Shown here one piece after another: positions 28,759 to 41,898 of a stretch of DNA of 64,000 nt (position 1 is the stretch's first letter; each line of letters begins with the position of its first letter). The position numbers were made by a program, and so were the translations under genes. The notes beneath the pieces were generated by a model that saw only the letters and a list, made by a program, of their open reading frames with translations, did no database searches and was not told the origin of the DNA. Source of the stretch: an uncultured bacterium (GTDB lineage: Bacteria > Babelota > Babeliae > Babelales > Babelaceae); NCBI GenBank assembly GCA_963722385.1, contig CAVRKK010000002.1:544001-608000 (forward strand), written 5' to 3'.

Positions 28759-31332
28759 TCATGAGGTTCTGCAAGCCTCCTCTTTTCGCTTCTCGGGCTC
28801 TTTTTCTTTAGCTTCTCTTTTCTCAGCTGCCTTAGAGAGCCAATCAACAATATTCTGCTTATTATTTTGAGCAGCTAAATCAATAGGTCTTTTACCAAAT
28901 CTACCTACAGCGTTGATATCAGCGCCATGCTCAACAAGCCATTGAACTACTTCTAAATGTCCATCATAAGCAGCCCTATGGAGAGGCTGCATGCCATCAT
29001 TATCTTGGGCATTGATAGCAGCGCCATGCTCAACAAGCCATTGAACTACTTCTAAATGTCCATCATAAGCAGCCCTATGGAGAGGCTGCATGCCAACATT
29101 ATCTTGGACATTGACAGAAGCGCCCTGTTCAACAAGCCATTGAACTACTTCTATATGCCCGTTATAAGCAGCACCATGGAGAGGTTGCCTGCCAACATTA
29201 TCTTGAGCATTGACAGAAGCGCCCTGTTTAACAAGCCATTGAACTACTTTTAAATGCCCCTTAAAAGCAGCACGATGGAGAGGCTGATTGCCAAAAATAT
29301 CTTGGTCATTGATGGAAGCGTCGTGTTCAACAAGCCATTTGACTACTTCTAAATGCTCCATATAAGCAGCCCAATGGACCGGCTGCATGCCAACATCATC
29401 TTGGGCATTGATAGGAGCACCATGCTCAACAAGCCATTTAACTACTTCTAAATGCCCCTTATAAGCAGCCCAATGGACCGGCTGAAAGCCAACATTATCT
29501 TGGGCATTGACAGAAGCGCCTTGATTAATTAAACTCTCTATTTCAGATAAATGACCAGCTTCAGCAGCGCTCAATAACCTCTCGTTAAGCTCTTGTTGAG
29601 TAAGCTGATTTGGATGATTTTTCTTTTCTTTCTCTTTTTGCTTCTCAGGCTCTTTTTCTTTGCTCTTTCCTTTATCGGCAGCCTTAGAGAGCCAATCAAC
29701 AATATTCTGTTTATTATTTTCAGCAGCTACATCAATAGGTCTTTTACCATCTCTATTTACAGCATTAATATTAGCATCATGCTCCACTAACCATTTGACC
29801 ACTTCTAAATGCCCATTGAGAGCAGCTGAATGGAGAGGAAGCCTGCCAGAATTATCTTGGGCATTGATATCAGCGTCATGCTCAACAAGCCATTTTACTA
29901 CTTCTAAACGCCCTCTTCCGGCAGCGTAATGGAGAGGAAGCTTGCCAGAATTATCTTGGGCATTGATACTAGCGTTATGCTCAACAAGCCATTTTACTAC
30001 TTCTAAATGCCCATTAAAAACAGACCAATGAAGAGGTTGTCTGCCATCATTATCTTGAGCATTGATGGAAGCTTCATGTTCAACAAGATATTTAACTACT
30101 TCTAAATGCCCAAATTGAGCAGCGAGGCGTAGAGGCTGCCAGCCTCGATTATCTTGGGCATTAACATGAGCGCCTTGATTAATTAAACTCTCTATCTCAG
30201 ATAAATGACCAGCTGCAGCAGCATTGCGTAACCTATTATTAAGTTCTTCCTGAGTAGGCTGATTAGAAGATTCCTCTCTTTCCTTTTCTTTTTGCTTCTC
30301 TACCTCATTTTCCGAAATCAGTGACGAACAAACATTATTCTCAGAAAAGAAATGCTGACTTGTTTCTTTCTCAACCTTTTGCTTTTGATCTTCTTGATCA
30401 TTACGATTGGCTCCCTGCCTAATGAGCCATTCAACTTGAGCATGCCCTCTAAGAGCCGCTATACGTACCGGCCTGTTACCATCTCTGTCTCTTGCATTTA
30501 TGTCTGCGCCATGCATAAGAAGCCATTCAAGAGTCGGTATCAAACCTTGATTTACTACATGATGTACAGGCTGATTACCAACAGCATCTCGGAAATTTAC
30601 GTTGGCTCCTTCCGCATAAAATATTTGCGCTTCTTCAAGATCACCACGTAAAAGGGCATTAAGAAGCCTTTGATTGCATTCTTCACTAGAAAGCTTGCCC
30701 ACGCCTGCTTCTCTTTTTATCTGCTTATCAGCGTTTTCTGCTCTTTCATTCTTCTTTGCCGGACTCAACAATAGCAACTGATCACTTATCGATAAAGCGC
30801 TCAGTTGCCCATACAAGTTTCTAGATCGATCTCCACTTGATGAATCATTCACCATGGCAAAAGACATTTCTACTGAATTACCTGGAGAATCAACAAATAA
30901 AGCCAATATATTTTCAGCATCGTAAATAGGCAATATTCCATTATTGTCAGCCAAATCTGGTTGAGCTCCTGCTGCTACGAGATCAAGAATAATTTCTTCA
31001 TATCCAGCTCGGGCCGCTATATGCAACGGTCGCTCCCCCTGGCTATCTTTTATTGGCGCATTCACACCTGCACCATATTCGATAAGAAGCTTTATTATTT
31101 CCCTCTTGCCGCTCTTTATAGCATAATGGATTGGTTGCCAGCCAGCACTATCACATACACTTAAATTAAGCCTATCAGTCAGTTTTTTATAACTCAGAAA
31201 GGTGTTTAAACTTTTCGCATCACCCTTTTCTACATACTCAAAAAGCTTATTCTTTCTCGGTCCTTCCATTCCATAAGCAGGCATAATCAAGAAACAGCCT
31301 ATTAATACTATCAGTTTCACATACTTAATCAT
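28759..31332 (-). CDS. Ankyrin array gene A (857 aa)
   Basis: Signal peptide AYG-ME; capped ANK modules with 4 and 6 internal repeats. Confidence 0.93.
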   Translation of the reverse strand: MIKYVKLIVLIGCFLIMPAYGMEGPRKNKLFEYVEKGDAKSLNTFLSYKKLTDRLNLSVCDSAGWQPIHYAIKSGKREIIKLLIEYGAGVNAPIKDSQGERPLHIAARAGYEEIILDLVAAGAQPDLADNNGILPIYDAENILALFVDSPGNSVEMSFAMVNDSSSGDRSRNLYGQLSALSISDQLLLLSPAKKNERAENADKQIKREAGVGKLSSEECNQRLLNALLRGDLEEAQIFYAEGANVNFRDAVGNQPVHHVVNQGLIPTLEWLLMHGADINARDRDGNRPVRIAALRGHAQVEWLIRQGANRNDQEDQKQKVEKETSQHFFSENNVCSSLISENEVEKQKEKEREESSNQPTQEELNNRLRNAAAAGHLSEIESLINQGAHVNAQDNRGWQPLRLAAQFGHLEVVKYLVEHEASINAQDNDGRQPLHWSVFNGHLEVVKWLVEHNASINAQDNSGKLPLHYAAGRGRLEVVKWLVEHDADINAQDNSGRLPLHSAALNGHLEVVKWLVEHDANINAVNRDGKRPIDVAAENNKQNIVDWLSKAADKGKSKEKEPEKQKEKEKKNHPNQLTQQELNERLLSAAEAGHLSEIESLINQGASVNAQDNVGFQPVHWAAYKGHLEVVKWLVEHGAPINAQDDVGMQPVHWAAYMEHLEVVKWLVEHDASINDQDIFGNQPLHRAAFKGHLKVVQWLVKQGASVNAQDNVGRQPLHGAAYNGHIEVVQWLVEQGASVNVQDNVGMQPLHRAAYDGHLEVVQWLVEHGAAINAQDNDGMQPLHRAAYDGHLEVVQWLVEHGADINAVGRFGKRPIDLAAQNNKQNIVDWLSKAAEKREAKEKEPEKRKEEACRTS

Positions 31333-31552
31333 TATTCTATCTCCCTTACATGTTACAGCTGTTTGTGCAATTCATGCGCGATCCAATATCACACCAACGA
31401 TCAAATAATAGCCTTCGCTTTACCTTCAGATTTGACCAGCCCCATATCTTTAAGTTTAGATAATTCTAGCTGAGCTGTTCTTTTTGCCAATTTTGTTTTC
31501 ATTTGTCGAGCAGTCAATTTACGAAGACCGATCTTTTGCGGTTTCTCAAAAA

Positions 31553-41800: not shown

Positions 41801-41898
41801 CCTTTTTCTACATACTCAAAAAGCTTATTTCTTCTCGGTCCTTCCATTCCATAAGCAGGCATAATCAAGAAACTGCCTATTAATGCTATCAGTTTCAT
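38830..41898 (-). CDS. Ankyrin array gene D (about 1022 aa)
   Basis: GGAGG RBS before ATG 41898 (MKLIALIG); modules of 4, 7 and 2 internal repeats. Confidence 0.93.
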   Translation of the reverse strand: MKLIALIGSFLIMPAYGMEGPRRNKLFEYVEKGDVKSLNTFLSYKKLTDKLKLSVYDSAGWQPIHHAIKSGNREIIKLLIKYGADVNAQIKDSQGERPLHVAARAGNEEIILDLVAAGAQPDLTDNHGILPIYYAENILALSVDSSANSVEMSFAMVNDSSSGDRSRNLDGQLSALSISDQLLLLSPAKKNERAENADKQIKRETAAGKLSREECNQRLLNALLRGDLEEAQLFYAEGANVNFRDAVGNQLVHHIVNQGLMPTLEWLLMHGADINARDRGGSRPARIAALRGHAQVVQWLIRQGANRNDQEDQKQKVEKETSQPFFPENNVCSSLISENEVEKQKEKEREESSNQPTQEELNNRLRNAAAAGHLSEIESLINQGAHVNAQDNRGWQPLRLAAQFGHLEVVKYLVEHEASINAQDNDGRQPLHWSVFNGHLEVVKWLVEHNASINAQDNSGKLPLHYAAGRGRLEVVKWLVEHDADINAQDNSGRLPLHSAALNGHLEVVKWLVEHDANINAVNRDGKRPIDVAAENNKQNIVDWLSKAADKGKSKEKEPEKQKEKEKKNHPNQLTQQELNERLLSAAEAGHLSEIESLINQGASVNAQDNVGFQPVHWAAYKGHLEVVKWLVEHGAPINAQDDVGMQPVHWAAYMEHLEVVKWLVEHDASINDQDIFGNQPLHRAAFKGHLKVVQWLVKQGASVNAQDNVGRQPLHGAAYNGHIEVVQWLVEQGASVNVQDNVGWQPVHWAAFDGHLEVVKWLVEQGASINAQDNVGMQPVHWAAGRGHLEVVKWFVEHGASINAQDNVGFQPLHWAAFGGHLEVVKWLLEHGADINAVNRDGKRPIDVAARKRDVVDWLSTAGEKREAKEKEPEKQKEKEKKNHPNQLTQQELNERLLSAAVAGHLSEIESLINQGASINAQDKGGSQPLHTAAEGGHLEVVKWLVEHGAPINAQNNVGRQPLHWAAWYGHLGIVKWLVQHGADINAVDRFGLRPIDLAAQKNKQNIVDWLSKAAEKGKRL

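Follow-up and report, generated by a model that had tools for sequence, protein, structure and literature searches.

The window analysed here, a stretch of 64,000 nucleotides from the genome of an uncultured bacterium (G000; 1.60 Mb in two contigs), contains at positions 28759-41898 an array filled by four minus-strand open reading frames (ORFs), all intact, which encode ankyrin-repeat proteins with predicted signal peptides and which we call genes A to D. The array is flanked by comM and by a decayed TnpB element. A first-pass annotation, made from the letters alone, had described these genes as a natural library of secreted binders similar to designed ankyrin repeat proteins (DARPins), in which the residues of a binding groove diversify on a nearly invariant framework. 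Its count of about 57 internal repeats in four genes proves exact; they are distributed over 12 capped modules and comprise 48 different DNA sequences, with 42 different combinations of the six groove residues (groove signatures). Not noticed at that stage were position 5 of the repeat, the constant ankyrin domains at the N-terminus, the very close similarity of module 1 among A, B and D, and two paralogues, E and F. The variation of this groove, and the processes that produce it, are the subject of this report. The genes are organized as follows.

38830-41898, minus strand: gene A, 1022 aa; signal peptide, two constant ankyrin domains, three capped modules
40255-40821, 39310-40167 and 38854-39222, minus strand: modules of gene A, with 4, 7 and 2 internal repeats
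34182-38549, minus strand: gene B, 1455 aa; signal peptide, two constant ankyrin domains, six capped modules
36894-37460, 36459-36821, 35865-36431, 35415-35783, 34761-35327 and 34206-34673, minus strand: modules of gene B, with 4, 2, 4, 2, 4 and 3 internal repeats
31553-33901, minus strand: gene C, 782 aa; signal peptide, one constant ankyrin domain, one module
31577-33223, minus strand: module of gene C, with 15 internal repeats and an N-cap different from that of the other modules
28759-31332, minus strand: gene D, 857 aa; signal peptide, two constant ankyrin domains, two capped modules
29680-30246 and 28828-29592, minus strand: modules of gene D, with 4 and 6 internal repeats
38487-38549 (B), 41848-41898 (A), 33839-33901 (C) and 31270-31332 (D), minus strand: predicted Sec signal peptides (hydrophobicity rule)
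38121-38468 (B), 41482-41829 (A), 33473-33820 (C) and 30904-31251 (D), minus strand: constant N-terminal ankyrin domain 1 (alignment)
37623-37901 (B), 40984-41262 (A) and 30409-30684 (D), minus strand: constant ankyrin domain 2, which gene C lacks (alignment, model of B)

All four proteins match Pfam ankyrin families at E < 1e-90. Gene A starts with an ATG at 41898, preceded by a GGAGG ribosome site. The leaders of A-D, predicted with our own hydrophobicity rule, have a basic start, a hydrophobic core and small residues before Met-Glu, and that of B ends right before this dipeptide. Each protein contains one to six modules of 2-15 internal repeats, and the capped modules are joined by Lys/Glu-rich linkers. 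The N-cap quoted in the first-pass annotation is found in 11 of the 12 modules, the single module of C having another one. Modules measure 120-290 residues (550 in gene C) and are predicted to fold independently. In the AlphaFold model of the two modules of gene D, two capped ankyrin stacks with regular 33-residue helix pairs (mean pLDDT 91.8) are connected by a low-confidence linker. Engineered multi-DARPin (triple-DARPin) fusions (PDB 5LEB and relatives) rank first among its fold matches; the earlier description of the modules as DARPin-like thus agrees with the model. In a model of residues 22-560 of gene B, the N-terminal domains and module 1 are set apart by low-confidence linkers. A hydrophobic spacing resembling a nuclear export signal is conserved in a low-confidence linker (B 38004-38033, A 41365-41394, C 33356-33385, D 30787-30816). 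The pattern is matched by 15% of random 70-residue windows and was not taken as evidence.

The family extends beyond the window. Paralogue E (G000:C2:617135-622420) encodes 1761 aa with 29 repeats and paralogue F (C2:1161549-1165655) 1368 aa with 21 repeats, so that the six genes contain 107 repeats, 93 of them distinct, and all six reading frames are open. Framework identity is 0.55-0.67 for the A-F family versus 0.35-0.43 for other ankyrin proteins of this genome. An older paralogue has N-terminal domains in common with the family, and its repeats are non-homogenised. Module 1 is near-identical in A, B and D, and its groove signature is the same in A, B, D and F.

For the analysis of variation, repeats were numbered from the Asp of the beta-turn (position 1). 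The groove set consisted of positions 2, 3, 5, 10, 13 and 14, and an a-priori DARPin set of positions 2, 3, 5, 13 and 14 was taken from PMC10484509 (here and below, statements on papers cited by PMC number refer to excerpts of their text). Among the 48 distinct repeats of the window, 14 amino acids are found at position 10, 10 at position 14 and nine each at positions 3, 5 and 13; position 2 also has nine, yet Asn occupies it in 33 of the 48 repeats. At 17 of the 27 non-groove positions, one residue is present in at least 85% of repeats. The earlier claim that framework codons are nearly invariant is overstated in view of this figure, of the heterozygosity at four-fold degenerate framework sites (0.24) and of position 29, which lies outside the groove and is as variable as the groove positions. 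The proposed match to the positions randomized in DARPins holds for 2, 3, 5, 13 and 14, which are on the list in PMC10484509. However, the most variable position, 10, is not on that list, and the dN/dS of position 2 is near 0.9 (see later in the text). Some agreement is to be expected, given that the DARPin design itself derives from the consensus of natural ankyrins (PMC8683736).

Heterozygosity at the first two codon bases of the groove positions is 0.55. At 13 four-fold sites of the framework it is 0.24 in the window (Mann-Whitney P 0.0003 for the difference) and 0.28 in the six genes (P 0.0006), the sites not being independent. In forward neutral simulations with whole-repeat or partial gene conversion, this excess was reached in 1 of 315 runs, and that of the a-priori set in 3 of 315. 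A codon model with a shared silent rate gave a ratio of non-synonymous to synonymous rates (dN/dS) of 2.81 for the groove in the window and 1.94 in the six genes, with 0.42-0.43 for the rest of the repeat. The corresponding values for the a-priori set were 2.40 and 1.73, those for five outer exposed positions 0.82-0.87, and fifteen neutral simulations ranged from 0.47 to 1.41. When the silent rate was fitted separately on the all-codon tree, groove dN/dS was 1.96 (P 0.001). Per-site values were 3.0 at position 10, 2.2 at 13 and 14, 1.8 at 3, 1.5 at 5, 0.9 at 2 and 0.17 at 33. Aromatic residues are concentrated in the groove: Trp, Tyr and Phe account for 102 of 372 residues at positions 5, 10, 13 and 14, and for none of 465 at the five outer positions. 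By contrast, pairwise dN/dS of N-terminal domain 1 is 0.15-0.36 in 20 of 21 paralogue pairs, and 0.54 in a pair with 3 changes. The N-terminal domains and the repeat framework are under purifying selection. The purifying selection on domain 1, together with the single module 1 groove signature in A, B, D and F, indicates that the proteins have a constant and a variable part.

Several results weigh against positive selection on the groove. IQ-TREE applied to the groove codons alone gave a dN/dS of only 1.14. When the tree was built from the framework only, fitting the rates separately yielded 1.30, with an optimiser that was unstable. For position 29, the two trees gave 2.85 and 1.18, and position 2 stays near 0.9. 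Moreover, position 10 was put into the groove set after its variability had been seen, and all selection tests assume that four-fold sites are neutral. These results bear on the alternative that there is no positive selection at all, the groove being merely unconstrained in a scaffold homogenised by conversion, with silent sites kept alike by conversion or by codon constraint. The same positions are variable in all natural ankyrins, the equal variability of position 29 fits a lack of constraint, and the near-fixation of the four-fold sites at 11, 19 and 28 could reflect silent-site constraint. However, neutral simulations with conversion rarely match the excess (the 1 in 315 given above, and none of the fifteen for the codon model), and outer exposed positions stay at 0.8-0.9. 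In addition, the third base of position 3 is T in 84 of 93 repeats while its first two bases vary, and a similarly homogenised family of a related genome (G008) has a constant groove, indicating that homogenisation alone does not give the pattern. We regard an absence of positive selection as unlikely. The earlier claim of diversification is upheld in that variation is concentrated at positions 3, 5, 10, 13 and 14 of the repeat and that groove dN/dS is above 1, although one simpler fit gave only 1.14.

A second alternative is that the groove codons are rewritten by a dedicated mutator, either a diversity-generating retroelement (DGR) or a system of cassette exchange. Most codons 1-3 have the form NNT, the outcome expected if an AAT template underwent adenine mutagenesis, and the two Ala codons between the hypervariable positions 10 and 13 are almost fixed. 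However, all three bases vary in codons 10, 13 and 14, and the codons observed are connected by single-base steps more than in random sets: at positions 3 and 5 the excess has P 0.001-0.002, and at 10, 13 and 14 it is weak. Reverse transcriptase is matched in the genome by nothing but a 129-residue fragment, located on the other contig (G000:C1:278565-278954) and apparently a group II intron-like remnant. No non-coding template was detected among the top 80 of 996 BLAST matches outside the array. A DGR mechanism was rejected, as neither a DGR reverse transcriptase nor, among the matches inspected, a template was found and the change is not adenine-specific, and a mutator of any kind appears very improbable. 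The word library is in this respect too strong: the six genes owe their variation to ordinary mutation, recombination and selection, and none of the searches revealed a dedicated generator. We conclude that there is an excess of amino-acid change at positions 3, 5, 10, 13 and 14, and that it arises by stepwise point mutation.

Point mutation is accompanied by recombination among the 99-bp repeats, within and between genes. In a test similar to the pairwise homoplasy index on the 93 distinct repeats, the compatibility of neighbouring sites was beaten by none of 2000 permutations, and the same was true for framework sites alone. One pair of codons 13 and 14 is found with up to four different codons 10. 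The best two-parent chimera leaves 4.7 mismatches per repeat, versus 8.5 for the best single parent, a figure that comes without a null. Loss of mismatch repair was considered as a cause of diversity and rejected, as both the MutS and the RecA genes are present. Taken together, positive selection combined with repeat shuffling is reasonably well supported.

The array itself was built by tandem duplication, as can be followed in the spacers and the upstream flank.

38550-38829, minus strand: spacer A-B, 280 bp; 3' remnant of a winged-helix gene and a promoter-like site
33902-34181, minus strand: spacer B-C, 280 bp; 100% identical to spacer A-B
31333-31552, minus strand: spacer C-D, 220 bp; copy of the A-B/B-C spacer with an internal deletion
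41899-41992, minus strand: 3' remnant of an IscB-type element directly upstream of gene A; 91% identical to C2:1161458-1161542 and 93% to C1:291694-291787
41985-42726, minus strand: decayed TnpB-type insertion element upstream of the array, with a Cas12f1-like TNB domain

Since the A-B and B-C spacers have the same sequence and C-D is that sequence with a deletion, the duplicated unit is a gene plus its spacer. A and B are 97.9% identical over the first 1723 nt, and A and D 98.6% over 1462 nt further on. A and D also have 1253 identical bases in common. As A is close to B in its 5' part and to D further on, A is a mosaic. The helix-turn-helix Pfam matches of the winged-helix remnant in spacer A-B are weak and below the cut-off. 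The promoter-like site of this spacer (38707-38680) is 1 of 35 sites, where 31 are expected by chance, and scans for promoters and terminators remained at chance level. No RNA dataset was among the listed runs that carry the sequence, which speaks neither for nor against expression.

Concerning dispersal, the sequence of the IscB 3' remnant upstream of A also precedes paralogue F, which is abutted by an intact IscB-type gene (C2:1160181-1161509, RRXRR and HNH domains). The TnpB-type remnant is 92-98% identical to longer copies at C2:87360-88553 and C2:1260233-1261415. The shared IscB-type end upstream of both A and F suggests that mobile-element copies helped to disperse the family. A 27-bp element end is also seen ~250 bp upstream of paralogue E, and several TnpB-type copies exist elsewhere in the genome. 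A conserved link between the array and comM was considered and rejected, as no ankyrin array lies upstream of comM in three relatives (tblastn and ORF lists, 3 of 80 loci). In view of these three relatives, the array is a lineage-specific insertion.

With such near-identical units, collapsed or chimeric strain variants might have inflated copy number and diversity during assembly. The 1253 bases identical in A and D are compatible with such an artefact, and no exact match to proteins A-D was found in a collection of 15 billion proteins. No spanning contig is listed for the array, so that copy number and order rest on this assembly alone. The repeats are covered by contigs at greater depth than comM, although depth is not a copy number. 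On the other hand, the six long frames are open, and the differences between copies follow codon structure and selection. In contigs of three studies (soil and peat runs, with the source sample possibly among them), the junction between the end of gene D and its unique flank is present with zero differences, and contigs matching at 99% or more (94 of 206 and 76 of 176) cover many repeat pieces. A variant of E occurs in another assembly: it matches 525 of the first 528 residues, and one of the three differences falls on groove position 13. From there on its repeat order departs from that of E, an internal repeat taking the place of a C-cap; its end looks frameshifted and may be partly an assembly error. 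Over 280 bases, one low-depth contig (run X5) shows 14 differences to the last repeats of D, versus 30 for the closest paralogue in this genome, which hints at another allele of the D repeats. An artefact is thus extremely unlikely as an explanation of the family.

The organism is likely a member of the Dependentiae (class Babeliae), a phylum of protist parasites. The best taxonomically labelled match of its ComM is from TM6 (62%), most others being at ~50% and one short contig labelled Gammaproteobacteria at 58%. In addition, the genome contains ATP/ADP translocase genes, two secretin genes and, in its 1.6 Mb, 160 Ank_2 matches. The small genome, the translocases, the ComM match and the secretins point to dependence on a host. 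A small residue followed by Met-Glu, Met-Gln or Met-Asp is present at the predicted cleavage site of 16 of 20 signal-bearing ankyrin ORFs, six of which are the A-F family. The Met-Glu/Gln/Asp pattern is found in 56 of 340 other signal-like ORFs and in 13 of 546 non-ankyrin ORFs without a signal, and a mature start of the Met-Glu type is also visible by eye in relatives. A mature protein starting like a eukaryotic protein could matter in the host cytosol.

Exact or close counterparts of the family are scarce. Among 30 related genomes, no close relatives of the A-F family were found, the best matches being 35-49% identical and restricted to repeats. Metagenomes of the Joint Genome Institute contained no exact DNA match. 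Another search gave 22 loci at only 23-37% identity, and the ESM Atlas returned only generic eukaryotic ankyrin clusters. A search for homologues of the N-terminal 311 residues (lengths 430-1369 only) yielded two close ones, the E allele and the older paralogue of this genome, within databases that may not show records near this genome.

Comparable arrays are nevertheless found in related genomes. We examined 23 stretches from nine of them, chosen as best matches to gene C and therefore biased to regular arrays. Eight homogenised clusters (at least eight distinct repeats, 80% framework identity) were found in four of the nine genomes. Framework identity is 0.76-0.86 within clusters and 0.43-0.64 between them, indicating that they were homogenised independently. 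A groove excess at nominal P < 0.05 was found in five of the eight, a contrast that framework-based clustering may favour. Among seven clusters of at least 13 repeats, the codon model gave a dN/dS of 2.8-4.6 for four (one in G028, three in G016), while three (one in G022, two in G008, including a RING-bearing protein) did not differ significantly from 1, which counts against our interpretation. No repeated capped modules were seen by eye in the relatives' proteins inspected.

Some of these arrays have a distinctive context. In G028 (L114:247-2067 and 2319-3992), two tandem signal-peptide proteins carry RING/IBR-like zinc domains and, after these, a homogenised ankyrin array of 34-residue repeats whose groove dN/dS is 3.9. 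Both have IBR matches near the Pfam cut-off before the array, and one also has a RING match. They are candidate secreted ubiquitin ligases with variable substrate binders. In G008, three tandem genes (L126:5959-11975) contain 33 homogenised ankyrin repeats in which the helix-1 groove is constant and the beta-turn varies, and their products may bind a repetitive ligand. The same genome encodes a 2224-residue signal-peptide protein (L129:8516-15274) with a long ankyrin array and a RING domain near its C-terminus. G016 has three independently homogenised ankyrin families with variable grooves (L115, L116 and L118), each followed by a conserved C-terminal ankyrin part, so that its constant region is at the opposite end from that of the A-F family.

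Taking these data together, we consider it probable that genes A-F are a recently amplified family of predicted-exported ankyrin proteins whose repeats are shuffled and whose groove changes faster than silent sites, likely through the binding of changing host proteins. The role as secreted host-binding effectors proposed in the first-pass annotation is an inference, the N-terminal signal peptides being evident by hydrophobicity only. Two further points weigh against our interpretation. A Sec signal alone delivers a protein to the periplasm only. Furthermore, Pfam detected no catalytic, F-box or RING domain in the window proteins, and no F-box, BTB or RING domain in any of the six family proteins. 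The same diversifying binders might instead face another opponent, the modules binding, in the periplasm or a vacuole, proteins of competitors (co-infecting bacteria, giant viruses or phages) or antimicrobial enzymes of the host, as self-protection or decoys. Periplasmic delivery by Sec would suit this, the selection results are blind to the identity of the partner, and a Bdellovibrio ankyrin self-protection protein appears as a title in the reference list of PMC6561590. However, no toxin or hydrolase gene adjoins the array (window ORFs, Pfam), neither a lipobox nor a membrane anchor is evident in the A-D sequences, and the comparable arrays of relatives are fused to eukaryote-type RING/IBR domains. 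We consider this other opponent unlikely.

If host proteins are the partners, the A-F proteins would be exported by Sec and then released into the protist host cell by type II-like secretion or vesicles. Each capped module would act as an independent, non-catalytic binder, several on one chain would provide avidity or bridge several targets, and the constant domains would hold a fixed partner. The proteins could in this way sequester or re-route host proteins, possibly towards the host ubiquitin machinery, in view of the RING or IBR domains joined to comparable arrays in relatives. More tentatively, and with doubt prevailing on our part, Babeliales may repeatedly evolve antibody-like repertoires in an arms race with protist hosts, composed of a constant adaptor and interchangeable, recombining paratope modules. 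In some lineages these would be wired directly to a RING/IBR ubiquitin ligase, and here multispecific chains with up to seven variable binders would bridge host targets to a fixed partner. If so, the A-F proteins would amount to natural multi-DARPin degraders or sequestrators, and host specificity could be read from their groove sequences, in a phylum with hosts mostly unknown.

The function of the ~100 ankyrin proteins per Dependentiae genome is unknown (PMC6561590). The present family marks which of them would be engaged in an active arms race and which residues matter, so that the question of what they bind becomes answerable one module at a time. The arrays of relatives indicate that a regime of shuffling plus selection arose several times within one order. 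The natural caps, the linkers and the selected position 10 are also of interest for binder engineering.

Elsewhere in the window, other eukaryote-like repeat proteins are encoded at 1517-3877, 19764-20996, 21669-23042 and 62669-63940 (three diverged ankyrin proteins and one WD40/beta-propeller protein). Long ORFs without a Pfam match at E 0.001 are located at 59081-61453, 25607-26626, 10711-11709 and 43971-44675; the one of 339 aa has a 55% identical counterpart near comM in a relative.

As regards known systems, ankyrin expansion is already established in this phylum. Babela encodes 126 ankyrin proteins, 79 with a signal peptide (PMC4378268), and Chromulinavorax 98, 78% of which have one (PMC6561590). 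Together with the TM6 survey (PMC4776705), these papers describe the same design of signal peptide plus ankyrin repeats and propose a role in host interaction. Their excerpts report numbers of proteins but are silent on homogenised repeats, on capped chains of several modules and on groove selection. Among other bacteria, the ANK genes of the intracellular Wolbachia (Siozios et al. 2013, PMC3563639) undergo repeat expansion and contraction and intragenic recombination; the term positive selection is absent from that text, and a capped multi-module design from its excerpts. The F-box, BTB and RING repeat families of Parachlamydiaceae (PMC4209131) likewise consist of tandem repeat-protein paralogues of amoeba-associated bacteria that are thought to act on host proteins. 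However, they are under purifying selection with little recombination and carry ubiquitin-system domains, whereas A-D show the opposite regime and none of those domains. Secreted polymorphic ankyrins are also reported for plasmodiophorids (PMC12503489). In the open-access literature we found no paper on homogenised, groove-selected, multi-capped bacterial ankyrin proteins; supplements were outside this scope, and those on Babela and TM6 may list such proteins.

The architecture finds its closest parallel in DARPins and multi-DARPin fusions (PMC8683736, PMC10484509), which share with A-F an N-cap, self-compatible internal repeats, a C-cap and several domains per chain. A-F differ in being natural, with a drifting framework, the strongest variation at position 10, up to 15 internal repeats and constant N-terminal ankyrin domains. 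Their diversity results from mutation, recombination and selection, whereas that of DARPins comes from a synthetic library, and the confinement of variation to randomized positions is absent in A-F, where positions 10 and 29 vary strongly and framework dN/dS is ~0.4.

The evolutionary regime is most similar to that of the ankyrin repeats with high internal conservation (HiC) in fungal NOD-like receptors (NLRs), such as Podospora Pa_3_8560 (Dyrka et al. 2014, PMC4986451). Near-identical repeats, changes in repeat number and recombination are common to both. In the fungal repeats, positive selection acts on about five positions of the inner helix and beta-hairpin of the concave face; recombination between repeats and concave-face selection are found in the A-F family too, the latter weaker in the groove-only fit. 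The HiC criterion, as published with T-reks, is at least 85% internal repeat identity over 100 residues, as compared with 76% mean pairwise nucleotide identity for the 93 repeats of A-F, or 85% at framework bases. Unlike the NLRs, the A-F proteins belong to a bacterium, have a signal peptide and several separately capped modules, and lack a death domain and NACHT or NB-ARC, only ankyrin families scoring convincingly with Pfam in the six proteins. Thus, the regime was known from fungal NLR ankyrins and the expansion from this phylum, and it is for their combination in bacteria that the open-access literature offered no paper. The A-F family would extend the shuffling and selection described for fungal immune receptors to the parasite side of the conflict between bacteria and protists.

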